A DNA stretch of 54,274 nucleotides from a virus. Taxonomy: Duplodnaviria > Caudoviricetes. The stretch is taken from positions 1 to 54,274 of IMG/VR virus record IMGVR_UViG_3300050162_000156, one strand, 5' to 3'. Position numbers and translations under genes: made by a program. Below are positions 12,423 to 46,323 of this stretch, one piece after another (position 1 is the stretch's first letter; every line of letters starts with the position of its first letter). The notes under the pieces were generated by a model. It searched no databases and was not told the origin of the DNA. It saw only the letters and a program-made list of their open reading frames with translations.

Positions 12423-12428
12423 AGGTCT

Positions 12429-12907: not shown

Positions 12908-12909
12908 TC

Positions 12910-14652: not shown

Positions 14653-14659
14653 AATTCAC

Positions 14660-15001: not shown

Positions 15002-15008
15002 AAATACC

Positions 15009-15389: not shown

Positions 15390-15415
15390 ACCGCTATTTA
15401 TGGACAAGCGAACAC

Positions 15416-15454
15416 CGTCATATTTCTTCTATAGTATTAAGGGAAAACCTGACG
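15416..15454 (+). repeat. 39-bp quasi-palindromic box, copy 1
   Basis: CGTCATATTTCTTCTATAGTATTAAGGGAAAACCTGACG; 1 mismatch to copy 3. Confidence 0.95.
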
Positions 15455-15507
15455 GTATTTCACTTATAAATAAAACCAATTTTGGTAATTTATTCATAGA
15501 CAAATAG

Positions 15508-15546
15508 CGTCATATTTCCTCTATAGTCTTTAGGAAAAACCTAACG
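15508..15546 (+). repeat. 39-bp quasi-palindromic box, copy 2
   Basis: CGTCATATTTCCTCTATAGTCTTTAGGAAAAACCTAACG; 92 bp from copy 1. Confidence 0.92.
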
Positions 15547-15557
15547 GTTTTCTTCAA

Positions 15558-15633
15558 TAAGAAATACCAAAAATGAATTTAGCACTGCACCACCCATGAT
15601 TGATATGATGTTCATCAAATTATGATTTTCTTT
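15558..15633 (+). repeat. 76-bp inverted repeat, left arm
   Basis: Reverse complement of 43308-43383 with 4 mismatches; 39-bp perfect core GAATTTAGCACTGCACCACCCATGATTGATATGATGTTC. Confidence 0.97.
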
Positions 15634-15672
15634 GAAAGAACACACCTGATAAATATCAGTATAGGAGTTCTC

Positions 15673-16458
15673 ATGTCATCTAAAATAAGTCCATCTACTA
15701 TCGATGCCACATTTCCAAAAGCTACAGTGAATCAGTCTTCGAGTGGGTTTCGTACCAACTTTCTAGCAATCCAGAATGCGTTTAAGGAAACTCGTTTGGA
15801 AATCAACGACCTTCTAGATAAAGTGATCGTCTCCGCACCGTTGGCCTATGGTTCATCAAATGTATACATCAATGACTTTGGTGGAATGAACAACTCGAAT
15901 CTTGCGCTTACCAATTATGCCAAGACATTGTATGATCATGGCCAGATCAGTACAGATGGCGCACTATCCATCGACTTTAGTGCCGGATCAGTTCATACAT
16001 GTAATCTGATCGCTTCTACCGTGCAAACTGTTCAAGTTGCCAATTATGGGAATCTTGGTCATCAGTCTGCTATCCTTTCCGTATTCGCAAATACGGTTCC
16101 GCAATATTTGGACTTTACATCGTTAGATGGAACCATGTACCCATATTCCTCGGTTCCGTCCGCTGGAAACTCATCCTTGTATGCGCCCCAGACAAATAAT
16201 GGAAACCTTCGACTGGACGCGGTTGATTATAATTATCTCGTTGAAGTCAGTAGTGAAAATGGCGATGATTGGTTTGTACAGGTGCTCAATCCTCCTACGC
16301 AGGTCGATGTAGCCACTGCTGTACCTTCTACCTCAATCGGTTCGGAAGGCGACCATCCGGGCATGATTGCCTACAATAGTTCATATTTTTACGTGTGTAT
16401 CGCTGAATATGACGGAACCACCCAAATCTGGAGACGATCAGCATTATCTTCGTTCTAA
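15673..16458 (+). CDS. Virion structural (tail/fibre-associated) protein; start revised to MSSKISP
   Basis: AGGAG RBS; ATAAATA; N-terminal IDATFP..SSGFRTNF and C-terminal GMIAYNSSYFYVC..IWRRSAL fibre-type motif. Confidence 0.75.
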   Translation: MSSKISPSTIDATFPKATVNQSSSGFRTNFLAIQNAFKETRLEINDLLDKVIVSAPLAYGSSNVYINDFGGMNNSNLALTNYAKTLYDHGQISTDGALSIDFSAGSVHTCNLIASTVQTVQVANYGNLGHQSAILSVFANTVPQYLDFTSLDGTMYPYSSVPSAGNSSLYAPQTNNGNLRLDAVDYNYLVEVSSENGDDWFVQVLNPPTQVDVATAVPSTSIGSEGDHPGMIAYNSSYFYVCIAEYDGTTQIWRRSALSSF

Positions 16459-16461
16459 CCG

Positions 16462-16490
16462 TTGACATTTGACTGAGTATGTGATATAGT
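16462..16490 (+). promoter_or_regulatory. Sigma70-type promoter of the dut-to-clamp-loader operon
   Basis: TTGACA-N17-(TGn)TATAGT. Confidence 0.8.
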
Positions 16491-16531
16491 CTTGATATAC
16501 AATATTTTTGATTGTTGGAGAACTATATCAC

Positions 16532-16981
16532 ATGCTATATGTAAAGCACCTTGTTTCGGATTCTATCGCCCCCACCTGTTCTCATCCCAATGAAGATTTG
16601 GGTTATGATGTATATGCCGCAGAAGACATTACTCTTCGCCCCCACATTCCCACAAAAGTAAGCACCGGAATTGCTGCACAGTATCGCGATTCATCAGACG
16701 AATCGATCATGTATGGCCTGTTGATTCGTGACCGTTCATCCATGGCAGCAAAGGGTATCACTGTGTCGGGAGGAGTTGTTGACGCATCGTACACTGGCCT
16801 AATTAGTGTCATTCTTACCCTCGCTGGACATTGGAGTGATTCTCCTGTTATGATTCACAAGGGCGACAAGATCGCACAAATGCTTCCGTTGAAGGTTCAT
16901 ACTGGTGAGGGTGTTTCGGCAGTAGATGAATTGCCTAGCAACACTAGAGGAGCCAATGGTTTTGGAAGCACAGGAGTTTAA
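16532..16981 (+). CDS. dut: Trimeric dUTPase
   Basis: Motifs GYDV, RSSMA, GVVDASYTG, KIAQM, RGANGFGSTG. Confidence 0.95.
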   Translation: MLYVKHLVSDSIAPTCSHPNEDLGYDVYAAEDITLRPHIPTKVSTGIAAQYRDSSDESIMYGLLIRDRSSMAAKGITVSGGVVDASYTGLISVILTLAGHWSDSPVMIHKGDKIAQMLPLKVHTGEGVSAVDELPSNTRGANGFGSTGV

Positions 16982-16983
16982 CA

Positions 16984-17214
16984 ATGTTTATCGATTTTAG
17001 CGAACTCAAAAACAAAGAACTTGAAGAGCGAATTACTAAGGCTCGGCAGATGTGGTTATCTGCCAACAATGAGAGTGTCGCTCAACAATTTGAACACATT
17101 CTGCGTGAGTTGGAAGATGAGCGCACCCGCCGTTTTGATGCACGAATGAAGCGGTATTATGAACGTAAGGGTATCACTGATCCTAATCGGGATACTACAC
17201 CAATTGATTTTTAA
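16984..17214 (+). CDS. Small helical hypothetical protein
   Basis: AGGAG RBS; in operon. Confidence 0.8.
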   Translation: MFIDFSELKNKELEERITKARQMWLSANNESVAQQFEHILRELEDERTRRFDARMKRYYERKGITDPNRDTTPIDF

Positions 17215-17234
17215 CCGGGACTTCGGAGGATAAC

Positions 17235-17912
17235 ATGGAATCAGTGATTGATAACACTACGGTACGACAGGAGCTACACGCAAAGGTAATTTCGGTTGAT
17301 GAAAACGGGTTTCTTCCCATGGCACTAACTATCACCTTTGATCTTATTATGCTTTCCCCTGAATATGCTGCACAATCGACAGCGGTGGAACGAGTGCAGG
17401 TCTTTTTCAGGGACGTATTCAATAAGTGCATGGTGATTGCCGAAAATAGTCCGCTATTGCCCAAACTCAAGAAACTCAAAACCTCTACCCTCATTATGGA
17501 AACCCCTGATGTACCATTTGAGCACCAGATTGGTTCATTACTTTTCAATAAACTTCAGGCTATCGTGGAAGATGTTTATTTGGTTGATGAATTGACTATC
17601 TGGGGTGACAGAGGAGGTCTTTCCTACATTATCAACAGTGCCAGTAAATATTCCGATAGCAACGAAGACAATCGCTGGTGGAATCGCGAGGATTTAACGC
17701 TGTCCGATGATAAGAAATCTCCACTCATTGAACTCACATGGGAAAAACTCGGGATGGAACTTGGTGATTATCTCATTTTTGATTTGGATGAAGACGGCGA
17801 ATTGGTTTTCACTCCATTGGAAGATGAGCCGGAATCTGATCTAGCGGTGACAGTAGTAGACGGCGGGGCAGAAAACCCCACCGAGGATGATAACTCGGAT
17901 GATTCTGAATAA
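17235..17912 (+). CDS. Conserved hypothetical protein with acidic tail
   Basis: GGAGG RBS; WWNREDL and TWEKLGM motifs. Confidence 0.8.
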   Translation: MESVIDNTTVRQELHAKVISVDENGFLPMALTITFDLIMLSPEYAAQSTAVERVQVFFRDVFNKCMVIAENSPLLPKLKKLKTSTLIMETPDVPFEHQIGSLLFNKLQAIVEDVYLVDELTIWGDRGGLSYIINSASKYSDSNEDNRWWNREDLTLSDDKKSPLIELTWEKLGMELGDYLIFDLDEDGELVFTPLEDEPESDLAVTVVDGGAENPTEDDNSDDSE

Positions 17913-18435
17913 TTTAGGAATGCCCGGTTTCACAGAGAAAGAAGTGGTAGATGGGTTGCGGGTAAATCCATCTACCAATCTGACCGATATTGGTTTAATC
18001 GACTCGCAATACAACGAAAAGATTCGTAAAAATTATGTTCAAGAAAGTATTGAATTTGCAAATATTTTCGAGGATAATATAGATATAGATTCGGTTGAGT
18101 TCCATACAGCGATTCAAAATTTTTGGTACATGCCAACGGAATATTATCAGTTTGATATTGTTGCATTTTTGCAATCGTTATGTGAAACAGAGCAGCAATT
18201 AACTAGAGTAAACCTTGAGTTGGATTTATATGCAAAGTTCAATTTGCTGAACCTATTAAGGTACATGGTGTACCTGAAAATCACTGCCGATGAACATAAG
18301 ATTGTATGGGGTGTCGGGCGCGGTAGCTCCTGTTGCTCGTATGTGCTTTATTTGCTCAAAATCCATAGAGTAAATAGTCTAGAGTATGATCTAGACATAC
18401 ATGACTTTTTAAGGGAGAAAACCAATGGCTCGTAA
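17887..18435 (+). CDS. DNA polymerase III alpha (DnaE)-like fragment lacking the catalytic aspartates
   Basis: RVNLELDL, IVWGVGRGSSCCSYVLYLLKIHRVNSLEYDL..FLR matches the DnaE GRGS region; start may be 17899. Confidence 0.85.
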   Translation: MITRMILNNLGMPGFTEKEVVDGLRVNPSTNLTDIGLIDSQYNEKIRKNYVQESIEFANIFEDNIDIDSVEFHTAIQNFWYMPTEYYQFDIVAFLQSLCETEQQLTRVNLELDLYAKFNLLNLLRYMVYLKITADEHKIVWGVGRGSSCCSYVLYLLKIHRVNSLEYDLDIHDFLREKTNGS

Positions 18436-18703
18436 AATCATCACATCGGCCCGAGGCAAGAAATTAGATTTTGACACAATAAAGGCGGCTGCAACCCATG
18501 CGCGGCCTATCACAAATAAAGTATCTTCTACCCAAACCCCCCATAAGACACCAGCAACACCGATTGATATTGTGGTTCCAAGATCACCGAAGCTAAATGC
18601 CGAGAGTCCTGCACCACGACCAGTTACACCAGAACAATCAGATGAAGCAGTAGAAGAAATTGATATTTTTTCCAGTAAGGAAAAACCGAGGAGAACGAAA
18701 TAA
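18425..18703 (+). CDS. Basic, disordered hypothetical protein
   Basis: SARGKKLDFD N-terminus; AGGGAG RBS. Confidence 0.75.
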   Translation: MARKIITSARGKKLDFDTIKAAATHARPITNKVSSTQTPHKTPATPIDIVVPRSPKLNAESPAPRPVTPEQSDEAVEEIDIFSSKEKPRRTK

Positions 18704-19083
18704 TGTCAGAGCAAGTTCCGTTGCCAAAAATTGTTGAGTTGCAACCCGGAATGAAAATTGAACCATTGCCTTCCGATGTGTTAGTTGTCGATATGTATTT
18801 CGGTGACTATCAATCTCAGGGAGGTATTATCCTAATGTCCGATGATGGTGTTGATCGCGGTATTAAACCACGTTGGGCGAAGGTCTGGGCTGTCGGGGAA
18901 AAGGTTCAAGATTTAAAACCCGGGATGTGGATTTTGATTGAGCATGGTAGATGGTCGCGTGGTATAGAAATTGAGGATGAGAATGCCAGTGAACCATACA
19001 CTATTAGAAAGGTGGACACAAAGGCCATCATGATGACTTCAGAAAACCAACCATCAGAAGGAAGACTTAATGGAAGTAACTAA
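18703..19083 (+). CDS. GroES-like co-chaperonin
   Basis: IEPLPSDVLV, SQGGIIL mobile loop, AKVWAVG, LKPGMWIL. Confidence 0.85.
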   Translation: MSEQVPLPKIVELQPGMKIEPLPSDVLVVDMYFGDYQSQGGIILMSDDGVDRGIKPRWAKVWAVGEKVQDLKPGMWILIEHGRWSRGIEIEDENASEPYTIRKVDTKAIMMTSENQPSEGRLNGSN

Positions 19084-19999
19084 GAATAATTTATGGGTCG
19101 AGGCATTTCGTCCAGCTACTTATGACGGATATGTATTCAAGGATGACAAGGTAAGAAATCAGGTTGAAACATTCGTTCACACTAAATCAATTCCCCACCT
19201 ATTGATCCATGGACCATGCGGAACCGGAAAGTCCACACTGGCACAGATCATCATCAACATGATTGGGGTTGAGAAAGCAGACGTTCTAAAGCTGAATGCC
19301 AGCAAAGAGAACTCGGTTGATACTCTACGTACCCGAATCTCTAACTTCGCCGCCACGATGCCCTACGGTGCGTTTAAAGTGGTATGGTTGGAAGAGGCTG
19401 ACCATCTTAGTACAGCATTTCAGGCAGCACTGAGAGGCGTACTAGAAGACAACTCAGGATCATGTCGATTTATCATGACGTGCAATTATCCATCAAGGAT
19501 TCTTCCGGCCATTCATAGTCGCTGCCAAGAAATCGTTCTGGATTCCCTGCCGATGGAGGATTTCATCGTGCGAATTGCAGAAATCCTCGTCTCAAATACT
19601 GTCGAGTTTGAAGTCGATGTGTTGGATTCTTATGTGAAGGCATATTACCCAGATATGCGTAAGACCATCAACGCGGTGCAGCTAAACACGAGGGAAGGCA
19701 AGCTATTGCCTGTCACTGATACAACTTCGACTAGTGATTATAAACTGGCCGCAGTATCACTTTTCAAGGACAAGAAATTTCGTGAAGCTAGAACCCTGAT
19801 TAGTTCACAACTTCGACCAGAAGAGGCCGATGATTTCTTTAGGTTTCTGTACAACAACCTATCGTTGTTTGGAACAACAGAAGAACAGAAGGACGCGGCC
19901 ATTCTCATCATTCGCAAGGGAGTAGTTCAGATTCCTCTGGTAGCAGATGTTGAAATTCTAGTCTCAGCAGTGATAACCGAGTTAATGCAAATCGAATAG
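19070..19999 (+). CDS. Sliding-clamp loader AAA+ ATPase (T4 gp44/RFC small subunit-like)
   Basis: LWVEAFRP, GPCGTGKST, LNAS, EEADHL, CNY, HSRC, PDMRK. Confidence 0.95.
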   Translation: MEVTKNNLWVEAFRPATYDGYVFKDDKVRNQVETFVHTKSIPHLLIHGPCGTGKSTLAQIIINMIGVEKADVLKLNASKENSVDTLRTRISNFAATMPYGAFKVVWLEEADHLSTAFQAALRGVLEDNSGSCRFIMTCNYPSRILPAIHSRCQEIVLDSLPMEDFIVRIAEILVSNTVEFEVDVLDSYVKAYYPDMRKTINAVQLNTREGKLLPVTDTTSTSDYKLAAVSLFKDKKFREARTLISSQLRPEEADDFFRFLYNNLSLFGTTEEQKDAAILIIRKGVVQIPLVADVEILVSAVITELMQIE

Positions 20000-20008
20000 G
20001 AGATAAAA

Positions 20009-20218
20009 ATGTATCTGTGCGTCACCACCGTTCAAAACGGAAAAGAAATTGAAGAAATTCCTATGATGTACGCCAAACTTCCAAAAGCGAAAGTTATGGC
20101 GGAAGCAAGTATCATTGTGAATCTCGAAACTGAAGAGGTAGTCAAATGCCGCCACGCCAGCATCCCCGACAAAACGTATACCGAAATCATCAAGTGGTTT
20201 CAAAACCTGACAGTGTAG
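20009..20218 (+). CDS. Hypothetical protein
   Basis: AGGAG RBS; in operon. Confidence 0.7.
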   Translation: MYLCVTTVQNGKEIEEIPMMYAKLPKAKVMAEASIIVNLETEEVVKCRHASIPDKTYTEIIKWFQNLTV

Positions 20219-20673
20219 CCTTCAATAAAATAGTAATTCACAACACTACATTACAATTATTCATTAAATTAGCGGACAAAAGTTTTCCGAAAGAGTGGGG
20301 AGTGGCCCTATTCGGGAACATAAAACAGAACGTCATATACATATATGCAACACAAGATTTGGATATTTATAAGAGCACTCCATGCACGTTAGCATACGGT
20401 ATATTAGAGCAAGACGATATTATCCCCTATACCTATCTAGGAATATTACATAGCCATCCAAGAGGAGGTTATGACTTGAGCGAAGCAGATAAAATGATCC
20501 TGCTGAACTCAATTCAGAATTCCACTTATACATTAGATACAGACGAAGTTATATTAGAACGGGATCACATCATGGGCGTGTTGGCTATATTTAAAAACAA
20601 ATCTACATTACAATGGAAATGCGCTTTTTACGACACCGAGTATCATGAGATTCCATTATTTATTTCACAATGA
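20146..20673 (+). CDS. JAB/MPN+ (JAMM) metalloprotease; true start uncertain (possibly GTG 20194)
   Basis: FPKEWGVALFG catalytic Glu; HSHPRGGYDLSEAD fits HxH-x7-S-x2-D. Confidence 0.8.
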   Translation: MPPRQHPRQNVYRNHQVVSKPDSVAFNKIVIHNTTLQLFIKLADKSFPKEWGVALFGNIKQNVIYIYATQDLDIYKSTPCTLAYGILEQDDIIPYTYLGILHSHPRGGYDLSEADKMILLNSIQNSTYTLDTDEVILERDHIMGVLAIFKNKSTLQWKCAFYDTEYHEIPLFISQ

Positions 20674-20706
20674 AAAGAGGGGCCAATATTGGCCCCTCTT
20701 TTCATT
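20669..20706. terminator. Bidirectional terminator, 38-bp perfect palindrome
   Basis: AATGAAAAGAGGGGCCAATATTGGCCCCTCTTTTCATT between convergent genes. Confidence 0.85.
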
Positions 20707-20710
20707 TGGT

Positions 20711-21469
20711 TCAAAGTTTGTCTTTGTACAGCTTGAGAATGTAACTTACCAATGGACTTCTAACCGAGTCTCCCTCGGCAAATTCTGTGATGCCCACTAA
20801 CGGATTCGGATTTCTACTGAGTCGTTTCATTAAATCTTCAAGGCCGCAGTCCGCAGAGAACCTACGATCACGTTGTTCAAGATCGCCTGAAATGATGAAC
20901 TTTGCGTTTTCTCCTGCGCGGCTCATGAGAGCCATACATTCATTTACAGTGGAGTTCTGCAATTCATCAGCAATTACTGCGCACGGATAAGCAAAGTTTC
21001 TACCACGCAGAAAGTTCAATGGTTCGATTGCAATCACTCCATTCTCAATCATCAGTAGAATGTCTTTCTTGCTGTACCATAGCTCCAAAAATTCCAACAA
21101 ATTCTTGTAATAGATTTCTAGTTTTTCGTACAAATCTCCGGGCAGTGCTCCAATCTGCACGTTATCAATAGTAGCAAGGGGTTTTGTTAGAATGATTTTT
21201 GAGATTTTCTTGGCTTCTAACTGTTGCACCGCCCAAGCGACTCCCATGTAAGTTTTACCGCAACCCGCTTCACCAATCGCGCATACCAAACGAATATCTT
21301 CGTCGTTCAGGTGCTCTAACATCTGTTCTTGGCGTGGGTTTTTGGGAATGATAGTCACTGTTTGCTTGAGTTGGCCACGATGACCAAAACTCTTTGGAAC
21401 CGCATTCGATGAAGTGATTGGAAGAGGGCGAGTGGAGGGGCTGTCTGGTTTCTTTGTTTTTCTAGGCAT
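20711..21469 (-). CDS. phoH: PhoH-family ATPase
   Basis: PKNPRQ, GEAGCGKT, IGALPGDL, FLRGRNF, DELQN, GDLEQRD, VRSPLV. Confidence 0.95.
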   Translation of the reverse strand: MPRKTKKPDSPSTRPLPITSSNAVPKSFGHRGQLKQTVTIIPKNPRQEQMLEHLNDEDIRLVCAIGEAGCGKTYMGVAWAVQQLEAKKISKIILTKPLATIDNVQIGALPGDLYEKLEIYYKNLLEFLELWYSKKDILLMIENGVIAIEPLNFLRGRNFAYPCAVIADELQNSTVNECMALMSRAGENAKFIISGDLEQRDRRFSADCGLEDLMKRLSRNPNPLVGITEFAEGDSVRSPLVSYILKLYKDKL

Positions 21470-21578
21470 ACTGCACAATTCTCCTTGATCTACTGCTGCC
21501 TTTCACCAATATTTAGCTGGCGGCATGGACTGATATTTTCGGCTGTTGACAGCAGCATAAATACACTAGAGGTTTACA

Positions 21579-22184
21579 ATGATTGATAACTCACCCATCC
21601 TAATAAAAGGGCACGTAACCATAGTTGACGAGCAGACCGGAGAAATTCTGGTCGATAAAGATAATGCAGTTCACTATGAAAATTTTTCGACCGCAATTGT
21701 ACAGAGTTTGATCAATGGTCCGGTAAACAACCAGAGTAGTGCAGGATTCATCTATAGCATGAATTTTGGTAATGGTGGCACATCGGTTGACGCAAGCGGA
21801 ATCATTACTTACAATCCGCCAAACACTTCTGGACTTACTGCGCAGCTATACAATCAGACCTATAAAAAGGTGGTCAATGATTCGTTCTCAACCAACTTGG
21901 ACACCGCCAATAATTACTTTCAGTACAGCCATATTACAGGAAAAAGCTACACCGATATTATTTGTCGTTGCCGCTTGGACTACACTGAGCCTAGCGATCA
22001 ACAGAGTTTCGACAATAGCAATGACTATAATACCAATTACGCCTTCGATGAATTAGGATTGTTCAGTTACTCTGGCCTATTACTAACACATGTTTGTTTT
22101 GCGCCTATTATTAAGTCTCTCAATCGCACCATGAAGGTCACATACACGTTGCGTGTATCAACACTATCGTCGCTGAATATCTAA
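21579..22184 (+). CDS. Virion (baseplate/tail) structural protein
   Basis: GHVTIVD..TGEILVDKDNAVHYEN, FDELGL, LLTHV..KSLNR; late motif and GAGG RBS. Confidence 0.75.
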   Translation: MIDNSPILIKGHVTIVDEQTGEILVDKDNAVHYENFSTAIVQSLINGPVNNQSSAGFIYSMNFGNGGTSVDASGIITYNPPNTSGLTAQLYNQTYKKVVNDSFSTNLDTANNYFQYSHITGKSYTDIICRCRLDYTEPSDQQSFDNSNDYNTNYAFDELGLFSYSGLLLTHVCFAPIIKSLNRTMKVTYTLRVSTLSSLNI

Positions 22185-22192
22185 GAGGTCAA

Positions 22193-23719
22193 ATGTCATA
22201 TACAATTAAACAAACAAATGGAAACGTGCTAACCACCATTCCCGACACACAATTAGTTAAGACCTTTGCTGGCCTGACGTTGTTTGGTGCGAATTATCCA
22301 TCTGTCGGCACTGTGCTGAATACTGATCTTGTTAGAATCGTGGAAAATTTTGCATCGAGTGTTTCGCCTACAAATCCACTGGTGGGACAGTTCTGGTATG
22401 ATACCACTGAAAACAAAGTAAAGTATTGGAATGGAACATCATTCAAACAAGTATCTGTTCTAACTACTGACTCAACCGCTCCATCCGATGCGCAGGAAGG
22501 CGATCAGTGGTTCGATACGAACACTAACCAATTGTATATCTATCATGACTACACTTGGATTCTGATTGGACCAGACACCGGAAACGTTGCATCAACAGAA
22601 GGCTGGATAACCGAAATCTTCACTAATAGTACCGCCAACATTTATTATGAAGAACTATTACTGAATGGCAACGTTGGAATCATTGCATCGACCCAAAACA
22701 TTGATACAACTTATAATCCCATTACTGGATTTTCCAACATTCGCGCCGGTTTGAATTTTGTCACTTCGCCAGTTTCGGGTGAGGCTGAGGGCGGAGTGTA
22801 CAATGCAACCGAACTTACTCTCGGAAACGGTGATCAATTTGCACTAACCACAGATGCAGACGGCAACGGTGACATTTATTCGTTCGGAAATATTACCCAA
22901 ATCAACACTATGGGAAATACTACAGCCAATGCGTATGCCTATCAACAATTCATCAACGGAAATATTACCGGGCTGGTGTACATGAACGAGTTGATGGCAA
23001 GAAATATCAACGTTGCGAATAACATGTCAGTTACCGGAAATATTACCATCACGGGAAACATTTCAGTTCCGGGGTCCGATCATCAAGTTCTGTATAATAA
23101 CAACGGAAATTTAGGTGCAACGGGCGCAATAAGTGTGTTTGCGAATAGCATGACTCAACTCAACGGCACTATTAGCGCATTGGGTGACACCTTCATCAAC
23201 GCAAACTTGAACATCACTGGTATGGCAACATTCAACGCGAATACTGCTAATTCATTTAGTATGCCGAAGGCAAGCCGGGGAACATCGGGTCAGGCTTTGG
23301 TTTCTAATGGGGATGGCACAACATCATGGGGATTGGGAAATGTTCCGACTATTTCTGCGGCGACATACAACTACTATACCAGACCGCCATATTTGGTGAA
23401 CGATCCCGAAAGTTATTCTGCCCCTCTAGGAAGCAGTTCAATTTTCCAGAACACGTCGAACTTGCGTATGTTAGTTACAGTCAGTGCAGATGGTGGCGGT
23501 GGAGGTTTTCATGGAGTTGTTTACTGCGATGCCAACCAAGCACCGACCACTGCTGTTGCCAAGTTCTGCCGAGTAAATGCAGGATCATCAAACCCAAATT
23601 GGTATCCGGGTTCCGTAACATTCATGGTTCCTCCGGGTTACTACTATAGCGTGTCTTGTACTAACAGCGGCGGAGTTATATCATCTGCGATGTATGTATG
23701 GACAGAATGGATATTTTAA
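22193..23719 (+). CDS. Baseplate/short tail-fibre-like protein
   Basis: MSYTIKQTNG, LVRIVENFA, PLVGQFWYDT, GDQWFDT repeats; fibre motif GQALVSNGDGTTSW; C-terminal tip domain. Confidence 0.75.
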   Translation: MSYTIKQTNGNVLTTIPDTQLVKTFAGLTLFGANYPSVGTVLNTDLVRIVENFASSVSPTNPLVGQFWYDTTENKVKYWNGTSFKQVSVLTTDSTAPSDAQEGDQWFDTNTNQLYIYHDYTWILIGPDTGNVASTEGWITEIFTNSTANIYYEELLLNGNVGIIASTQNIDTTYNPITGFSNIRAGLNFVTSPVSGEAEGGVYNATELTLGNGDQFALTTDADGNGDIYSFGNITQINTMGNTTANAYAYQQFINGNITGLVYMNELMARNINVANNMSVTGNITITGNISVPGSDHQVLYNNNGNLGATGAISVFANSMTQLNGTISALGDTFINANLNITGMATFNANTANSFSMPKASRGTSGQALVSNGDGTTSWGLGNVPTISAATYNYYTRPPYLVNDPESYSAPLGSSSIFQNTSNLRMLVTVSADGGGGGFHGVVYCDANQAPTTAVAKFCRVNAGSSNPNWYPGSVTFMVPPGYYYSVSCTNSGGVISSAMYVWTEWIF

Positions 23720-23741
23720 AAGGGGCCGATCGGCCCCTTTT
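23718..23741. terminator. Bidirectional terminator, 24-bp perfect palindrome
   Basis: AAAAGGGGCCGATCGGCCCCTTTT between convergent genes. Confidence 0.85.
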
Positions 23742-30056: not shown

Positions 30057-30085
30057 TCACGGAACCTCTTTGTATTTATGCCGAA

Positions 30086-30112
30086 AAAAGTGGCCCGTTA
30101 AGGGCCACTTTT
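30086..30112 (-). terminator. Intrinsic terminator directly followed by a late promoter (30073-30079)
   Basis: AAAAGTGGCCC-5nt-GGGCCACTTTT plus T run on the minus strand. Confidence 0.8.
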
Positions 30113-30115
30113 CCG

Positions 30116-37105: not shown

Positions 37106-37152
37106 AGGTGTCCTCAAGAGTATTTATGTGGCGGGGAAACACCTATTTCAAA

Positions 37153-38052
37153 CTATAGAACGGATAATCCTCCACTACTAGGATCAATATAAGAATAGAA
37201 CATGATTATGATTGAACCAACGTCAGGCGGGGTGGTGAATGTCACGCAGTTATCAATTAGGGTGTAGTCGTGCCCTTGCGCCAGCAGTATCCCATTAACA
37301 TACAAAAAAGCACTATCGGCAGGTTGTGGGGTGTTGGGTAGGTAAAAAGTCATATTTACCCCGTCCACTTCTCCTGATGGAGACTGATAATCTGCGTATA
37401 AGTACGAGATTGCACTACCATCTGAAGTCACGTTGCTTAAATCCCATCGCGCAATCGTGATGTAATAATTTGCGTTAACCGTCGAAGTATAATCTACCTT
37501 AAAGTTGTAGGTTACTGAATTGGCACTTCCGTGCAAGTCAGGCTTACCCGATTCCATATTGGTATATTCAGCAGTAGTGATATACAGTAACGAGGGATTC
37601 GGAATGCCCGAAATAATACCGGATGAATTATCTAACACTAAGTTGCTAGGAAGAGTTCCACTACTTACAACAATGTTTCCGACCAATTCTGGGATATTTT
37701 CGGTGGGAGCAATACTAATCGATAGAGGAAACCCATCTGGCCAAATACCTAAGTTAGCATTTGGTAGATAATTCACAAGCGTGGCTGTTGTTACTTCAAT
37801 CGAGAATGTTCTATCAACAACAATTGCACCCGAAGCCATACGAAGTGTGAATTCGTATAACCCGGATGCAATTGTTAAAGGAACAGTTCCGCTGATAGTG
37901 AATCTAGATAATGACAAACCTTCTGGAAGACTCCCAGCAATCAACGACACAGTAACAATAGACGTTCCGGTGGTTGCCGAAAGCGTTATTGAGAAAGCTG
38001 TTCCCTTGGTAACAGTGCCAATGATTCCTGCGTCAGTATTCCAAAATATCAT
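37153..38052 (-). CDS. Ig-like (He_PIG-type) virion protein, apparent N-terminal part
   Basis: LIAGSLPEGLSL..ISGT, DRTFSI, SSGTLPSNL..GIISGIP; C-terminal PSGEVDGVN module. Confidence 0.75.
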   Translation of the reverse strand: MIFWNTDAGIIGTVTKGTAFSITLSATTGTSIVTVSLIAGSLPEGLSLSRFTISGTVPLTIASGLYEFTLRMASGAIVVDRTFSIEVTTATLVNYLPNANLGIWPDGFPLSISIAPTENIPELVGNIVVSSGTLPSNLVLDNSSGIISGIPNPSLLYITTAEYTNMESGKPDLHGSANSVTYNFKVDYTSTVNANYYITIARWDLSNVTSDGSAISYLYADYQSPSGEVDGVNMTFYLPNTPQPADSAFLYVNGILLAQGHDYTLIDNCVTFTTPPDVGSIIIMFYSYIDPSSGGLSVL

Positions 38053-38068
38053 ACTGGTATTTATCAGG

Positions 38069-38284
38069 CTAATACCTATATACGATTCGGGCCAACTCCA
38101 GAGAATATGGACTCAGTTCTAATTGTACTGAATCACCCGGTTCAATTCGAATGCTGTTCTTTCGGAGTTTCCCTCCAAGATATGCCGGAATTTCTTGCCC
38201 GTTAGGTAGTGTGACAATCCACCGCGTGTTTGGTAGTGCAGTAGTCACGACTCCTCTTACAGATACCTGATCAATTCGTGCCAT
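38069..38284 (-). CDS. infA: Translation initiation factor IF-1 homologue
   Basis: 71 aa; GVVTTALPNT..V.L.NG..I.AYLGGKLRKNSIRI.PGD.V.LELSPY.L..ARIVYR. Confidence 0.93.
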   Translation of the reverse strand: MARIDQVSVRGVVTTALPNTRWIVTLPNGQEIPAYLGGKLRKNSIRIEPGDSVQLELSPYSLELARIVYRY

Positions 38285-38290
38285 TTCCCC

Positions 38291-38476
38291 TCATGATGTG
38301 AGTGCTTTCACCATGCGGTGAAGCAGTTTTCGTAAAGCATCTTCCCATGCTTGTTTCTCGCCGATGAATGAATGGGCCAGCATTCCATCCGACCCATCCG
38401 TGATATAGAAATACTTGCAGTTATGGATACACTTGGCATTTGGTATTGCCTTTGTCACATACTCTTCCGAAGTCAC
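38291..38476 (-). CDS. Small hypothetical protein
   Basis: GAGGA RBS; GTGA overlap; AWEDA motif similar to AWKDA in 41799..42050. Confidence 0.7.
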   Translation of the reverse strand: MTSEEYVTKAIPNAKCIHNCKYFYITDGSDGMLAHSFIGEKQAWEDALRKLLHRMVKALTS

Positions 38477-39663
38477 TTACAAATCCTCAAGATGACGGTA
38501 TCTGGACTCAAACAATTTTTTACTTTTGTTTCAACTCCAGTAATTCCACCAAACCACTTATTAGCCTTTACCGTAGTCTGCGCAGCAGTAAATGCTTTGA
38601 GTTGTTCGGCAGGTTTTCTCAATGTCTTCTGGATACTCTTGGATTCATCAAGGTTAAGAATTTTAGAACCCTTCACGTCCAATGTACAGTTTGGAATCGC
38701 GACGAAATGTTGTAGCTTTCTCAGCTTGGTGTTATAGGTCCAGAGTTCAGAGGCTTTGAGAATTTCAACCGGATTGGCTGACTGTAGTTTGAGTGCTTCG
38801 AAACTTCTCAAGTATTTCAACCCAGCAACGATCTTTTCAGGAGCGACAGCTTTCTTTTTCTTGGTGGCCTTGACACGATTTTTGACTACAACCGCGTTTA
38901 CCTCATTGATTGCTCGTTCAATCCATGCGATACAATTCTTGGTCTGTTTGGCTGTCAAATGATGGTAATCTTCCTTATACGGAAGTCGATCCTGAGACAC
39001 TGCCTTGTAGATGTACAACATTGAATTTAGATGCTCAATTACATCCTTGCGTTTGTTCGCGGGAATCTGTTGGATGAGCGCGCCCAATGAATTTGTTTCC
39101 AAGTGGTATCCATCATATAAAAAGTCGGAAAATAATCCGTCAATCTCTGCCTTGATGTAACGCACCTTATTATTCAGTCTATCCTGAATTGTTTCCTTTA
39201 CCGTGTCCTCGGAGACGATTGACTTCTGTTTGGGATTGCGAACACATTTGCGAATGTTCTTAGCTAAGAATTGCTTCTCTTTCTTTCTCAAAAGAAATCC
39301 GTAGTGCATCAGCCGGATGAGTTTCAACGAAGTGAAAGAAAGTTCATATTCGCTTCCGAGAATCTTTTTGTATAGTTGTTCGCCATGCTCAGTTAGATGG
39401 AACGCTTTTAGCGCACATGCACTCAGCGACTTCACATCTTGTGTGAGATTATACCAATTCAGTGCAATCAATAATCGGGAGCAATATGTGTCATAATCCC
39501 ACGCTTTCTGTTCTTCGATTGATGGATAGGCTGGCTCATACATACCAATTTCATTCATGCCATCGCCCTTGAAAATTAGCTGCTTTGGTGCATGATCAAA
39601 CTTGGTAGGTTTGAAAGTACGAATTGCTCTTACTGGAAATCGTTTTGTGTTTTTCTTTACCAT
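38473..39663 (-). CDS. Conserved T4-like phage hypothetical protein (basic)
   Basis: ALNWYN, TIQDRL, WTYNTKLRKL, VKGSKI, KTLRKP motifs. Confidence 0.8.
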   Translation of the reverse strand: MVKKNTKRFPVRAIRTFKPTKFDHAPKQLIFKGDGMNEIGMYEPAYPSIEEQKAWDYDTYCSRLLIALNWYNLTQDVKSLSACALKAFHLTEHGEQLYKKILGSEYELSFTSLKLIRLMHYGFLLRKKEKQFLAKNIRKCVRNPKQKSIVSEDTVKETIQDRLNNKVRYIKAEIDGLFSDFLYDGYHLETNSLGALIQQIPANKRKDVIEHLNSMLYIYKAVSQDRLPYKEDYHHLTAKQTKNCIAWIERAINEVNAVVVKNRVKATKKKKAVAPEKIVAGLKYLRSFEALKLQSANPVEILKASELWTYNTKLRKLQHFVAIPNCTLDVKGSKILNLDESKSIQKTLRKPAEQLKAFTAAQTTVKANKWFGGITGVETKVKNCLSPDTVILRICK

Positions 39664-39666
39664 ATC

Positions 39667-40203
39667 CTACTCCGCTGAGGGAATTCCCAATGTTGCCAAC
39701 ATTTCTTCCAATAGCATCACCTGAACCATACAGTCCTCTAGACCGTCATGATTTGTTGGCGGGGTTGGATAGTTTGTCAGCTTTGCTACTGTCTGAAAGT
39801 CCATACATTGATTGACATTCCATGGACACCGCATATTGTTTTCACGGAGCAAATTTTCCAAAATGGTTAAATGGAAATTTCTATTTGCCCAGACTTCAGT
39901 TGCGCCAAACATGAAGGTACGGAATTCCTGTAATCCGCGCATCAATGGAGTGCGTCCGTTATCGGTGAATAGAGCCTCTTGGACGGCCTCGGGCTGCGAG
40001 GACCACCAGAGTACCGTAGAACCGTCTTCAAAACGATTCTCCTGCCCTTCTAGGGCCAGCAACACATGAAAGGTTGGGGCTTGTGACATGTCAGACATAT
40101 CACCCCGATTAAACGCTACCGCAGAAATACTCAGAACTTTTGCATCTGGAGTACACGCCAGCGTTTCAATGTCTACCATACGACTGTTATATTTGTTAAC
40201 CAT
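39667..40203 (-). CDS. DEDDh 3'-5' exonuclease (DexA/RNase AS-like)
   Basis: MVDIETL, TVLWWSSQ, PW..MDFQT, HDGLEDC. Confidence 0.85.
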   Translation of the reverse strand: MVNKYNSRMVDIETLACTPDAKVLSISAVAFNRGDMSDMSQAPTFHVLLALEGQENRFEDGSTVLWWSSQPEAVQEALFTDNGRTPLMRGLQEFRTFMFGATEVWANRNFHLTILENLLRENNMRCPWNVNQCMDFQTVAKLTNYPTPPTNHDGLEDCMVQVMLLEEMLATLGIPSAE

Positions 40204-40209
40204 AATCTC

Positions 40210-40914
40210 CTAATCGTTTACTTCTACGCCAGTCGGTCCCAACTTTCCACTGACACCGATTTTAGGTAACTCAGTGGTATTGACTGACTCAAAATATTTA
40301 TACATCAAGTGCTCAATGTCTCGATACTTCCCGTGGTTGATCGAAGCAAGGAAATCTTCTATCATGATATTATAGCGAGATAATACAAGTTTCAAGCTGT
40401 TTTTCGGAAAACTCCACAATCTTGTCATATATTGTTTGGCGAGATTACCTGTTAGCATGGGAGGAAACTGCGATTGACACGCTTGCGCAAAATAATACTG
40501 AGTTGGATCAGAAAAATTTGCCAAATTAAACTCATCGGTCAAATAGTATCGCCCGGACAACTTGAATATTCGATCATACGCTGGCAACGGTGATTGCATC
40601 TTTGTAAGCACAGTCTTGAATGCGTACAACTCACTCAAATTTTTAACAATGTCATGATTTGTTTTTGGTTCATTGTAGATGTGCGCAAGGTTGGTATCAC
40701 TTGATAGATCAGCCAACGATGTGCATTTAAGTTCCTTTTGTTGGGCAGGAGTAATGGCGAATCCAACACTACAATTCACCAATAGAACCTCTGCGGTTGG
40801 AACCTTATCATATACACTCTGAATGGTTCGCTTGGTTTGTTCAAACCGCTCCTCGGTGCTGTATACGCCATACTTGGTATTGATTGCCGATGGCACAATG
40901 AATAATGTTTTCAT
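40210..40914 (-). CDS. Putative glycosyltransferase-like protein
   Basis: ERFEQTKRTIQS, RIFKLSGRY, TRLWSF, DIEHLMY; motif-level inference. Confidence 0.5.
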   Translation of the reverse strand: MKTLFIVPSAINTKYGVYSTEERFEQTKRTIQSVYDKVPTAEVLLVNCSVGFAITPAQQKELKCTSLADLSSDTNLAHIYNEPKTNHDIVKNLSELYAFKTVLTKMQSPLPAYDRIFKLSGRYYLTDEFNLANFSDPTQYYFAQACQSQFPPMLTGNLAKQYMTRLWSFPKNSLKLVLSRYNIMIEDFLASINHGKYRDIEHLMYKYFESVNTTELPKIGVSGKLGPTGVEVND

Positions 40915-40915
40915 G

Positions 40916-41746
40916 TCACTCCATGTGGAACAGATACTTATGTTGTGTGGTTAGCTTATTGCGATAATGTGAGTAAATCGTAAGAATTTCCTCGTTACAA
41001 ATCGCGGTCTTCAACACACTCAGGGCTTTAATTTCTAATACGACCTCGGGAGGAAGCGACAGCTTGCTCACTAACTGCTGAGTAGAGTATTCATAATTGA
41101 CCGCCACGATTTGAGGGTGTAGTAGCAGGAACACACTGAACAAACGTTCGACCACAAAAGTGTAATATGGGATGTTCTTGTCGCCTGAATAATCTGCGCT
41201 GGTTTCAAACAATAGTTTTTCATATTCAGGATTTAACTTTGCGTAATCAAGGAAGTTAGTAACGAACGTGATGTACTTACTCCAAAACTTACGATTCCCA
41301 CAAAAATAATTGCAAAATGTAAAGGTGGATCGATCCATGATGTGTGTGGGCGATAGCTCGTAACCCATCAGTACCAAGGTATCCAGCATCAGTTTGGATA
41401 GTCCTTTATGGTACAGTTCTCCATGAAAAATTACATTCGGGAAAATGGCCTCGTTGATCGGTTTAGGATTGATGAAGCACACGTCAGCAAAGGACTCGTT
41501 TCTTTCAACAAACGCTTTGAACTCCTGCGGGGTAATGCCAGCCTTGGTGGAAAATTTAGGACTAATAAAGCCCCAATACGATAGGTCGGACGTGTTGGTT
41601 GCTACGTTGTGCCAGCATTCTGCAAACACTGGATACTCTCTATGTTCTGGATGCGCAGCCGCTCGATTGTCCCAAAGTTCAATTCCCTCGGGTTTTTCTC
41701 TCGACATTTGCTCATCGGTGTGACAAATTTCAAATAATGTAATCAC
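40916..41746 (-). CDS. Putative glycosyltransferase-like protein
   Basis: REY, WGFISPKF, FCNYFCG..FW..Y, FVVERLFS; motif-level inference. Confidence 0.5.
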   Translation of the reverse strand: MITLFEICHTDEQMSREKPEGIELWDNRAAAHPEHREYPVFAECWHNVATNTSDLSYWGFISPKFSTKAGITPQEFKAFVERNESFADVCFINPKPINEAIFPNVIFHGELYHKGLSKLMLDTLVLMGYELSPTHIMDRSTFTFCNYFCGNRKFWSKYITFVTNFLDYAKLNPEYEKLLFETSADYSGDKNIPYYTFVVERLFSVFLLLHPQIVAVNYEYSTQQLVSKLSLPPEVVLEIKALSVLKTAICNEEILTIYSHYRNKLTTQHKYLFHME

Positions 41747-41798
41747 GAAACATTCTCCTATAAGAATACTTCTATTGTAGGAGAAAATAATTCGTAAT

Positions 41799-42050
41799 TC
41801 AATACTGTTCGTCCACTCCCGACAATTGATTTGTCATATTTTCGAGCAAATCAATTGCTGCATCCTTCCATGCGCCCTTGATGGTGTTTCCCATACCAAT
41901 ACAGATTCGACGGGAGGTTAGTGGTCGCCGGAAACCTCTATAATGGGCAGGTTGCTTACCACCAACATAGATGTGCCAGTTCCTTCCCATGGGTCCACGC
42001 GCACAATAAGCCTGTCGTTCAATCGATTTAACCAACTGTGAGTTTGTCAT
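41799..42050 (-). CDS. Small basic hypothetical protein
   Basis: ORF co-oriented with and overlapping the upstream gene; GAGGA RBS. Confidence 0.65.
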   Translation of the reverse strand: MTNSQLVKSIERQAYCARGPMGRNWHIYVGGKQPAHYRGFRRPLTSRRICIGMGNTIKGAWKDAAIDLLENMTNQLSGVDEQY

Positions 42051-42594
42051 GACCAGTCATCCTCTGAATGTTTTCTCCTGCCAATACCATCGCCATGTAT
42101 TCTTCTTCCGATGATTGCCAGAGAAATCCATTGGGTATCTCCCATAGGGTATTGGTACAAATATGTTGGTCCGTGGCGCAACGGGCGAAATAATTCGGAT
42201 CATAAATGAACTGACACTCGCCATCTTTCTCTTGGCGGCGCATCATGGTAATCTCGCCCATTTCATCGGATTTCCATAATGACCAATCTTCAAAATCGGT
42301 ACGGCTCATAGGGTTCACTACCGGGAAGCTCATCACGTCATGAACGAGACATTCTTGCAGTTCTGCTCGGATGATACCAACGGAATCCCCACAATCTACA
42401 ATCAGATTCTCGGTCACTCGGAATTTAAAAGGGGATCGAACCACTTTATTTTTCAAGTCAATGAACACCCCAGCTGGCCGTGCTCTCGCATTCAACAATA
42501 CCAACCACATATATCGCTGGTTGGCCATATCAGAAAACAAAATTCGGACGTATGGAAGAAACTCATCATTGTTTAAGGATGGCAATTTGATCAT
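42028..42594 (-). CDS. Hypothetical protein, leaderless
   Basis: ATG 6 nt after the -10 box; segment PAGVFIDL resembles PVGVSVDI in the neighbour. Confidence 0.75.
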   Translation of the reverse strand: MIKLPSLNNDEFLPYVRILFSDMANQRYMWLVLLNARARPAGVFIDLKNKVVRSPFKFRVTENLIVDCGDSVGIIRAELQECLVHDVMSFPVVNPMSRTDFEDWSLWKSDEMGEITMMRRQEKDGECQFIYDPNYFARCATDQHICTNTLWEIPNGFLWQSSEEEYMAMVLAGENIQRMTGHDKLTVG

Positions 42595-42600
42595 AGGAAA

Positions 42601-42629
42601 ACCATATCACACGAAATAGGTCTTGTCAA
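42601..42629 (-). promoter_or_regulatory. Sigma70-type promoter
   Basis: TTGACA-N17-(TGn)TATGGT. Confidence 0.75.
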
Positions 42630-43267
42630 TCCCGGCAATGTACCAAAATTTTCACTGCACTTAACGGTTTGAGCCTTATTAACAAATCAGGATGCGTTCT
42701 AAGGTACATAAAGTCTTTCACGGTCATTTGAACTATCTTTTTCATGGTAATGCCTTCCAAAAATAGGCAAATTGTGGCAAGTGAATTGGTAGTCATTAAC
42801 TCTACTATACCGCCCACATACACGGTTTTCGCATCAACGCACTCTGTTCTACCTCTGAGCAACACTCTAGTGATATTATGCCAATGAAATCTAATGTCCG
42901 TGATTGATGGGTGATACCACATAGGCAGCATGGGCAAATCGTTTTCATGAACCACTTTCGCACGTGGGTACTCAGATAGGTCGGTGGCCAGCCATACGTC
43001 TACCATATTTGGTAGACGCGAATTACTCGAAAGTTTTAATTCACTTTTGGTTAATTTCATTAACAGATCATGGGGGATTGATTCAATAGTACCAGTGTTA
43101 ATGTCCACTGATACTCCGACAGGCCAAATGGTTCGGTTCTGAATCAATAAATGCCTTTTGTTGTCTCGGTCTGAAAACAACCACCAATATTCTGCAGTTA
43201 TAGACGCATCGGGTGCTGGACTCAGAATTGTGGAGTGGAGTATATGAGCTTGTGATTTTGAATTCAT
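42626..43267 (-). CDS. Hypothetical protein, leaderless
   Basis: 213-aa ORF; ATG 6 nt after the -10 box. Confidence 0.7.
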   Translation of the reverse strand: MNSKSQAHILHSTILSPAPDASITAEYWWLFSDRDNKRHLLIQNRTIWPVGVSVDINTGTIESIPHDLLMKLTKSELKLSSNSRLPNMVDVWLATDLSEYPRAKVVHENDLPMLPMWYHPSITDIRFHWHNITRVLLRGRTECVDAKTVYVGGIVELMTTNSLATICLFLEGITMKKIVQMTVKDFMYLRTHPDLLIRLKPLSAVKILVHCRD

Positions 43268-43273
43268 TTATCT

Positions 43274-43302
43274 ATGATAGCAACGAATCCAATAATTGTC
43301 AA
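43274..43302 (-). promoter_or_regulatory. Sigma70-type promoter
   Basis: TTGACA-N17-(TGn)TATCAT. Confidence 0.8.
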
Positions 43303-43307
43303 CCAAA

Positions 43308-43383
43308 AAAGAAAATCAAAATTTGACGAACATCATATCAATCATGGGTGGTGCAGTGCTAAATTCGTTTTTTGTATTTCTTA
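43308..43383 (-). repeat. 76-bp inverted repeat, right arm
   Basis: 72/76 identical to 15558-15633 in reverse complement. Confidence 0.97.
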
Positions 43384-43394
43384 AAGAGAAAAAG

Positions 43395-43433
43395 CGTCAT
43401 ATTTCTTCTATAGTATTAAGGAAAAACCTGACG
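43395..43433 (+). repeat. 39-bp quasi-palindromic box, copy 3
   Basis: CGTCATATTTCTTCTATAGTATTAAGGAAAAACCTGACG. Confidence 0.95.
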
Positions 43434-43469
43434 CAAGATTATTCATTTATTCATTCATAAAGTGAATAT

Positions 43470-46133: not shown

Positions 46134-46176
46134 AAATAACCTCGATATTGTATTTATGTGAAATGGAGGTTTTGAA

Positions 46177-46323
46177 ATGAGCCAATTCAATGAGTTTCCA
46201 GCAGTTTCGGTCCAAGAGCATTTGAAAATTGAAGTTGAAGAACAGGGAAAGCAAACAAAGGTAGTTGTGAATTCCCGCGTTTCACCCACCCCAAAGGACA
46301 ACAAATGCAATCCCAAGAGATGA
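46177..46323 (+). CDS. 48-aa hypothetical protein (not in ORF track)
   Basis: GGAGG RBS; MSQFNEFPAVSVQEH...; ATGA overlap with the next gene. Confidence 0.6.
   Translation: MSQFNEFPAVSVQEHLKIEVEEQGKQTKVVVNSRVSPTPKDNKCNPKR

Follow-up and report, generated by a model that had tools for sequence, protein, structure and literature searches.

Dispersed non-coding cassettes probably mark the heads of transcription units in an uncultured giant phage

Background

Among T4-like phages, promoter-early stem-loop (PeSL) cassettes have been described in RB49/phi1, PST/T4 and nt-1/KVP40, as far as the available text of the two reports on them covers these phages (Arbiol et al. 2010, PMC2839356; Comeau et al. 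2014, PMC4122927). There they are multi-copy intergenic composites of ~100 nt, combining a stem-loop, a sigma-70-like promoter and an A/T-rich upstream tract, and gene shuffling is described as proceeding by crossover at these sites, with no dedicated recombinase (PMC2839356, PMC4122927). Here, we describe a comparable family of non-coding cassettes, two of which lie in inverted orientation around a 27.7-kb segment of the IMG/VR virus record IMGVR_UViG_3300050162_000156 (Caudoviricetes). The entire record, 54,274 nt, was analysed and is referred to as the window; its CheckV completeness of 15% implies a genome of ~360 kb, of which the window is a fragment of about 15%.

Each cassette is made of one or two copies of a 39-nt box and of a longer arm, which points at the next gene. 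The two loci in the window are likely members of a dispersed family that marks the heads of transcription units in this ~360-kb phage, a jumbo myovirus that appears from its gene content to be related to T4. The inverted pair is most likely ordinary gene-control DNA and not a genome-flipping switch. The initial annotation, made from the letters of the window, had proposed either a site-specific genome-inversion system or a duplicated origin.

PeSL cassettes are the closest known system, and the comparison extends as far as the available portions of the two reports describe them. As in PeSL, the copies are numerous, lie in intergenic DNA between one stop codon and the next start, and are conserved in sequence among themselves; they bring together a predicted hairpin, an A/T-rich upstream tract and, in some copies, a sigma-70-like promoter. 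Genes beside them are gained, lost or replaced between close relatives (here at 2/4 loci), and the mechanism proposed in both cases is homologous recombination between copies. Unlike in PeSL, the conserved part lies upstream of the promoter, consisting of the box and a ~80-nt arm with an invariant core of 39 nt, and besides early promoters the module serves late-type (G/C)ATAAATA ones, as well as divergent gene pairs. In place of the GGGG...CCCC of PeSL, the stem-loop here has an A/T-rich sequence and a large internal loop; the hairpin is not convincingly a terminator, and one copy has a flipped box. Furthermore, the copies described here bracket a 27.7-kb core segment, whereas PeSL cassettes bracket single small ORFans, and concerted evolution at orthologous loci sets the present family apart from PeSL as documented in those portions.

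A second point of comparison is provided by the Rak2-like jumbo phages CBB and GAP32, for which the available part of one report predicts RpoD-like promoters with UP-like elements and a late promoter, ATAAATA, the latter by analogy with T4 TATAAATA (PMC5259590). By the similarity of its baseplate wedge (30-37% amino-acid identity) the window phage falls in the same group; it has the same late motif before structural genes, as well as host-type early promoters with A/T-rich upstream tracts. The promoters of that report are short MEME motifs, in contrast to the present module, and no shared 130-nt module with a palindromic box is described in the part available (PMC5259590).

Results

Cassettes lie upstream of genes and point at them

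Ten copies were examined, four of the type found in the window and six of a second type, found in a related contig (G003) and its sample. All of them are intergenic, and all of them lie upstream of the next open reading frame (ORF) and are directed at it (4/4 window-type, 6/6 G003-type). Judged from sequence only, the arm is followed by a sigma-70-like promoter in 2/4 window-type and 3/6 G003-type copies, and by a late-type (G/C/T)ATAAATA motif in the other five. In the G003 type, three of the six copies continue with (C/T)ATAAATA and a ribosome site, and the other three with TTGACA or TTGAAA, 17 nt, and TATnnT or GAATAT.

In the window the left arm ends 39 nt before the ATG at 15673 (+) and the right arm 40 nt before the ATG at 43267 (-), each directed toward the gene that it precedes. 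The opposite strands of these two genes account for the inversion of the arms. The parts of the two cassettes are as follows.

15416-15454, no strand assigned: box 1, the copy farther from the arm; imperfect palindrome or hairpin whose outer stem is CGTCA/TGACG
15508-15546, no strand assigned: box 2, beside the arm, with a weak fold (z -0.83 / -0.46)
15547-15557, + strand: T-rich spacer of 11 nt between box and arm
15558-15633, + strand: left arm, toward gene 15673, containing the 39-nt core at 15575-15613
43308-43383, - strand: right arm, toward gene 42626-43267
43384-43394, - strand: T-rich spacer of 11 nt, read on the - strand
43395-43433, no strand assigned: box 3 (fold z -1.75 / -1.79), 36 nt past the stop of the upstream gene

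This geometry bears out the initial annotation in most respects. The stretch 15558-15633 is the reverse complement of 43308-43383 with four mismatches (15568, 15574, 15614, 15622), which leave a perfect run of 39 nt (15575-15613), and the spacing holds exactly, with 11 nt between box and arm at both loci and 92 nt from the start of box 1 to the start of box 2. Because each box is partly palindromic (self-complementarity 26/43), a repeat search takes the inverted repeat further, to 127 nt at 81% (15507-15633 / 43308-43434). The three boxes were claimed to be in direct orientation, and they do match better on the + strand (37-39/43) than as reverse complements (24-28/43); one of the loci thus has its box turned round with respect to the arm. 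The box concerned is box 3, which differs in this from the other five boxes of the window type. The G003-type box fits the right-locus reading slightly better (scores 8-9 vs 3-7), a gap too small to call the ancestral orientation. A 41-nt box pattern allowing at most 3 mismatches was found twice in the window, against 0.00 expected from 100 shuffles. The heptamer TATTCAT, which had been offered as a marker of the DNA beside the boxes, is unspecific, with 23 occurrences in the window (14 on +, 9 on -).

As RNA, box 1 is predicted to fold with -13.9 / -15.5 kcal/mol on its two strands (z -2.98 / -3.69). In the window type and the G003 type alike, the box fold consists of an outer 6-bp stem, an inner stem and a loop of 8-11 nt; between the types, one pair of the outer stem is changed on both sides (T-A to A-T) and another on one side only (C-G to T-G). 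The hairpin architecture is thus kept despite the difference in sequence, with z from -3.7 to -0.3. The spacer following the arm-proximal box is T-rich in 4/4 window-type copies vs 0/6 of the G003 type. The arms show no RNA fold better than shuffles (z +0.54 and +1.31); each contains a small palindrome, TCAAATTWTGA, and a -10-like TGATATGAT with an upstream TG, followed by an A/T-rich tract.

Further copies in the same sample

The arm core and the box pattern each match exactly two other IMG/VR contigs, both from the same sample as the window, G001 (21.8 kb) and G002 (20.0 kb). Shorter patterns hit 50 and 7 loci, of which 48/50 and 5/7 lack extended similarity, the rest being on these two contigs. 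The cassette is the sole DNA common to the window, G001 and G002 (GC content 42.4, 43.9 and 43.3%), and the proteins flanking the four loci are unrelated, with no pair at E < 0.009 among 13 proteins. Across all four aligned window-type copies the 39-nt core is identical. The G001 copy has one box and an arm, between a divergent gene pair; the G002 copy has two boxes, an arm and an early-type promoter, behind a co-oriented gene. Looking for the core and the box beyond the window thus revealed dispersed further copies, the outcome that the initial annotation had tied to a general regulatory repeat.

The raw assembly points the same way. Contigs of the probable source run were aligned to 14400-16700 at 80% likeness, and their summed depth was 15-19 on the flanks, 101.8 in the box bin and 171.8 in the arm bin, a depth that is not equal to copy number. 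Loose contig ends carry the G001 flanks and at least two flanks absent from any assembled contig, and a single-box variant is also present, which suggests copies beyond the four assembled. Contigs of this run break at the repeat and none bridges the cassette. A second run (X2) yielded only two 151-nt pieces at a depth of ~4. The arm core had no match in a metagenome contig collection, from which the source sample was possibly left out, so that this search is uninformative on copy number. As a separate observation, G001 (L012) carries at 8500-13000 (+) a tandem array of ~12 paralogous ORFs of ~80 aa with 68-90% DNA likeness, ending just before the gene downstream of the cassette.

Orthologous loci and concerted evolution

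The closest relative, G003, is a 63.7-kb contig that carries a homologue of the 261-aa protein of gene 15673 at 58% identity. It is collinear with window positions 1992-51838 on one strand, with 65-71% nucleotide identity in conserved genes, and it has an inverted repeat of its own (130 nt, 91.5%) at the two homologous junctions. A 24-nt piece of the G003 arm occurs six times in its sample, twice on G003 and four times on a 195.8-kb contig.

All four window-type copies lie at loci orthologous to G003-type copies, as judged by the flanking proteins, and orthologous copies agree in subtype, late with late and early with early. The two types have only the promoter-proximal third in common, i.e., ACCACCCA, a -10-like ATATGAT, TCGTC and the A/T tract. 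Together, the orthologous loci and this shared third place the origin of the cassettes before the split of the two lineages. Within genomes, cassettes align with scores of 168 and 219; between genomes the scores are 40-63 vs a shuffle mean of ~30 (reached by 0-19 of 500 shuffles), and a neighbouring intergenic control gave 36 vs a shuffle mean of 35.1. Since copies at orthologous loci are far more alike within than between genomes, the cassettes have evolved in concert within each genome.

The genes headed by the cassettes are less constant. At 2/4 loci the two genomes have different genes immediately after the cassette. The ORFs at 41799-43267 are absent from the orthologous place in G003, where the right cassette directly precedes the homologue of window 40916-41746, so that next to the right cassette the window phage has cargo specific to its lineage. 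The G002 copy heads a gene that is unmatched at the orthologous G003-type locus.

Candidate promoters and genes at the two loci

The flanking genes and candidate promoters of the two loci are listed below; the two late-promoter-like motifs come from a survey of ATAAATA in the window.

15395-15402, - strand: CATAAATA, late-promoter-like, for the leftward gene (ATG 15389)
15648-15655, + strand: GATAAATA, late-promoter-like, 17 nt before ATG 15673
15673-16458, + strand: 261-aa gene behind the left cassette, without a family match
41799-43267, - strand: ORFs of 83, 188 and 213 aa directly downstream of the right cassette
43274-43302, - strand: sigma-70-like promoter TTGACA-17-TATCAT with upstream TG (11/12 matches)
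43470-46133, - strand: upstream gene of the right cassette, listed at 948 aa (43470-46316)

Of the 21 ATAAATA sites, 12 have within the next 3-30 nt the ATG of an ORF that is 80 aa or longer; random positions judged in the same way gave a mean of 1.5 and a maximum of 7 (300 trials). All 12 placed sites read (G/C)ATAAATA; downstream of them are the wedge gene, the genes for the giant virion proteins, gene 15673 and, beside box 1, the leftward gene at ATG 15389 (examples among the 12 are the sites at 46662, 50732 and 21556 on +, and at 38065, 37128, 30080 and 46158 on -). On this distribution, (G/C)ATAAATA is a candidate late promoter of the window phage, resembling that of T4. At the left locus an AGGAG ribosome site stands between GATAAATA and ATG 15673; the same motif follows the arm in G001, and orthologous loci in relatives have CATAAATA or CTAAATA in its place. 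A late-promoter-like motif beside the box, as at 15395-15402, is also found in G001 and in four G003-type copies.

At the right locus, the -10 hexamer ends 6 nt before ATG 43267, and the same geometry is seen in G002, whose copy has the promoter TTGACA-17-TTATAT, and at L114 and L116. More generally, 5/6 early-type promoters examined have a -10 ending 6-7 nt before the next ATG and no ribosome site (window 43267-43302 (-), L014 4647-4680 (-), L114, L116, and G005 at ~220.4 kb (-), G005 being a distant relative considered below); the sixth, L113, has a 24-nt leader with AAGGAG. Early mRNAs are accordingly predicted from this spacing to be leaderless.

Two gene starts probably need correction. 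The 948-aa ORF probably begins at ATG 46133 (887 aa), which is preceded by CATAAATA and lies where relatives begin to align (from residue 61 of the 948-aa ORF on). The leftward 132-aa ORF at 15009-15407 (-) likely starts at ATG 15389 and not at the mechanical TTG 15407. The initial labels of an Ig-like virion gene (43470-46316) and a virion gene (15673) could not be reproduced, as neither has a Pfam or PHROG match. The 261-aa protein has homologues at 58%, 45% and 37% identity in G003 and in two more distant contigs, G004 and G005, and no tblastn match in cultured phages; the 948-aa protein has only partial matches to cultured phages (15-23% coverage). The 83-, 188- and 213-aa ORFs are without a family match, and the last two are faintly alike (E 0.009). 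At the DNA level the left locus has no match among 50,697 phage records.

In the window as a whole, genes lie on the - strand left of 15407, on the + strand at 15673-20673 and again on the - strand at 23741-46316, and the 27.7-kb segment between the arms carries replication and virion genes. PHROG matches include NrdD, a clamp loader, a PhoH-like protein, dUTPase, exonucleases and a gp6-like baseplate wedge, the last with 30-37% amino-acid identity to the jumbo phages Atu_ph07, SCTP-2, XaC1 and Serratia BF; giant virion proteins of 1672 and 2333 aa are also encoded. Some other features were noted in passing. In the NrdD-like protein of 872 aa (1709-4327, -) the PHROG profile is matched at 1-406 and 556-869, and the unmatched ~150 aa between may be an inserted domain or an intein. 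A 73-nt direct repeat (89%; 400-472 / 844-916) runs across the starts of two adjacent paralogous genes (36-446 and 486-926, -), both of which match one G004 locus. Perfect or near-perfect palindromes lie in short intergenic gaps at 20669-20706 (38 nt, between convergent genes), 5825-5856 (32 nt) and 4584-4624 (41 nt), and are probably bidirectional terminators.

Gene order in distant relatives

Two more distant relatives were found by alignment queries, G004 (50 kb, 45% identity) and G005 (359,890 bp, 90% complete), the latter beginning and ending with the same 126 nt, a sign that it may be a complete genome assembled as a circle. The initial annotation had argued that inverting the segment would place gene 15673 directly behind the 948-aa gene, co-oriented with it. 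That order exists in G004 and G005, where the homologues of three genes, 37153, the 948-aa gene and 15673, stand side by side in one orientation; G003 has the gene order and orientation of the window throughout. The junction between the 948-aa and 15673 homologues has no cassette in either relative, consisting of 15-33 nt and a CTAAATA motif. One end of the segment was therefore rearranged in the course of evolution, and the cassettes now stand at the new junctions. As evidence for inversion this is weak. Between the window and G005 there are at least ten synteny breaks, and the adjacency does not show that cassettes caused the rearrangement; cassettes and viable breakpoints alike are confined to transcription-unit boundaries. 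A rooted tree would be needed to say in which direction the 948|15673 junction changed.

Where G005 has the counterpart of the G001 locus, the module is missing, and the late motifs of the two divergent genes stand back to back at a distance of ~15 nt; the module has therefore also been added to pre-existing junctions. G005 (L090-L107) has several families of dispersed repeats of its own, 50-90 nt in length (e.g., 66271-66335, 125349-125408, 186344-186400 and 343180-343243; 200470-200549 and 262877-263962).

Discussion

A probable module for gene control

Read toward the gene, a cassette would thus begin with one or two imperfect-palindrome boxes, able to form an RNA hairpin or a DNA cruciform, and a short T-rich spacer. 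The conserved arm of ~80 nt would follow, ending in its A/T-rich tract, and after it the gene's own promoter, either host-type (-35/-10) or T4-late-type (G/C)ATAAATA, and the start codon. In such a module the box and T tract may insulate the downstream unit from incoming transcription, or the box may bind a dimeric protein. The arm would supply upstream promoter determinants or regulator-binding determinants, for which the palindrome TCAAATTWTGA, the -10-like TGATATGAT and the UP-like A/T tract just upstream of the -35 are candidates. Gene conversion through the phage's homologous recombination may keep the copies alike, and the same homology could occasionally permit gene swaps or segment inversion at cassettes, as has been proposed for PeSL.

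Several observations weigh against this picture, or against parts of it. A terminator role for the box is doubtful because its stability is modest (z -3.7 to -0.3), a consensus scan calls no terminator at either locus, the T tract after the box is present in 0/6 G003-type copies, and the upstream gene is divergent in 6/10 copies, so that no gene reads into the box there. Promoter scan counts are not above chance (3 vs 3.6 expected in the right region), and none was called between the left arm and gene 15673. The 39-nt invariant core is longer than any promoter element needs, and both this and the flipped box at the right locus are left unexplained. Finally, the placement of G001 and G002 in the same genome as the window is inferred from the sample, the GC content and the shared element.

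Other identities fared poorly. A structured RNA is not indicated, as no Rfam family reaches its gathering score in the window and the arms fold no better than shuffles; nor is a tRNA remnant, since neither the window nor G001 or G002 contains a tRNA. In the arm direction, an ORF of 8 codons has ATG in two copies and ACG in the other two, and an antisense arm ORF differs in length in each copy, so neither a conserved small peptide nor an antisense product is apparent. The cassettes are not duplicated gene heads, since the downstream proteins are unrelated. A promoter in the box with the arm as RNA leader was also considered; on inspection the box has no convincing -35/-10 at usable spacing, and the arm is unfolded.

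Possible recombination between copies

The cassettes could also recombine with one another. A more ambitious proposal, which we consider rather unlikely and offer as speculation, is that the box is a break point, prone to cruciform formation and cut by, e.g., a structure-specific nuclease of the phage, and that the break is repaired from another copy. The cassette would then be a self-homogenising element of jumbo phages, a portable homology that lets whole late and replication modules, and not just small ORFans, invert or exchange; the 27.7-kb segment would exist at low frequency in two viable isomers, and the G004/G005 order would represent the junction of the other isomer. Self-homogenisation, if true, would make the copies of one genome resemble each other, and the family as a whole would diverge from genome to genome.

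A simpler form is that the general recombination system of the phage acts on the two cassettes (76 nt at 95%, 39 nt perfect), giving a minority of genomes in which the 27.7 kb are flipped. Such isomers would be a by-product of the repeats, with no dedicated switch, and would be compatible with a role of the cassettes in gene control; we rate their occurrence as unlikely. The likeness of copies within a genome at orthologous loci implies physical exchange between them, a crossover inside the arms would leave each transcription unit with a cassette and its own promoter, and the flipped adjacency, the 948-aa gene and then 15673, exists in G004 and G005. In addition, T4-type recombination is said, in the available text of one PeSL report, to need patches of <50 bp (PMC2839356). 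However, the window and G003, both of the assemblies that have the pair, share one orientation and assemble through the repeats, and the 948|15673 junction of G004 and G005 is without a cassette, at 15-33 nt only.

Origins, mobile elements and a dedicated switch as rival readings

As dispersed gene-control DNA the cassettes are better accounted for than as replication origins. T4 has several promoter-dependent origins, and oriF and oriG combine a middle-mode promoter, which has its activator box at a set distance, with an unwinding element behind it. An arm promoter built on the -10-like TGATATGAT and an A/T-rich unwinding tract could by analogy give a transcript that primes DNA synthesis; the hexamer, its upstream TG and the A/T-rich tract are visible in the arm, and the arrangement is partly conserved in the G003 type. 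Against this, there is no -35 and no activator box at a fixed distance (ACCACCCA stands 7 nt from the -10-like hexamer here vs 10-11 nt in the G003 type), the G003 type lacks the TG, and the strict link to gene starts with two promoter subtypes fits gene control better. GC skew, which the initial annotation had suggested as a check, follows the coding strand only, with no origin-like turn at either locus. Its proposal of a duplicated origin is likewise hard to reconcile with a multi-copy family in unrelated contexts, all tied to gene starts, and we hold an origin function to be very unlikely.

A selfish, MITE-like, non-autonomous mobile element resident in intergenic sites, with no role for the phage, has an equally slim chance. 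The orthologous sites in G005 do look empty, with late promoters ~15 nt apart where the window lineage has a 130-nt module, the family is multi-copy, and a palindromic box sits at one end. The ends, however, are ragged and mosaic, no terminal inverted repeats, target duplications or transposase were seen, 10/10 copies have one orientation relative to the next gene, unlike random insertion, and four loci have been kept since the split from G003.

The weakest candidate is programmed site-specific inversion of the Gin/Hin/Cin or shufflon type, in which a dedicated recombinase acts on arms or boxes. In the classical cases, the G segment of Mu with Gin and the C segment of P1 with Cin, ~3-4 kb tail-fibre switches lie next to a serine recombinase gene and an enhancer. 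The window resembles these in having a segment between short inverted repeats in a phage genome, and the repeats are sharply conserved with a 39-nt core; it differs in that no recombinase was found, the repeats are one pair of a larger family, and the segment is 27.7 kb of core genes whose orientation is conserved in G003. The initial annotation was right that the window holds no recombinase (no match to PF00239 or PF00589), an absence of little weight in ~15% of a genome of which ~85% is unseen; profiles for serine and tyrosine recombinases (PF00239 Resolvase, PF00589 Phage_integrase), which matched in 12 and 14 of 14 control genomes, likewise found nothing in G001-G004 or in the 90%-complete G005. 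With at least four copies in unrelated contexts and both orientations, all at gene starts (10/10 in the two types together) and not one defined pair, with the same orientation in G003, and with replication and virion genes in place of a variable tail-fibre cassette, a dedicated inversion system is extremely improbable.

Implications

Recognising the pair as members of a family that probably heads transcription units removes a tempting false lead, the genome-flipping switch. In its stead there is now a picture, open to testing, of the way in which an uncultured giant phage marks where its gene units start. Beyond what is published for PeSL in the text available, a single upstream module of 130 nt serves both early-type and late-type promoters. 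For a phage group that lacks transcription data, the analysis also yields candidate promoters of the early and late classes and early genes that appear to be leaderless. Four loci have kept their cassette since the two lineages split (~50% protein identity) while the sequence of the cassette was replaced in concert, a clear-cut natural example of viral regulatory DNA evolving in concert. The cassettes are thereby defined sites at which recombination-driven shuffling of modules in jumbo phages can be tested.

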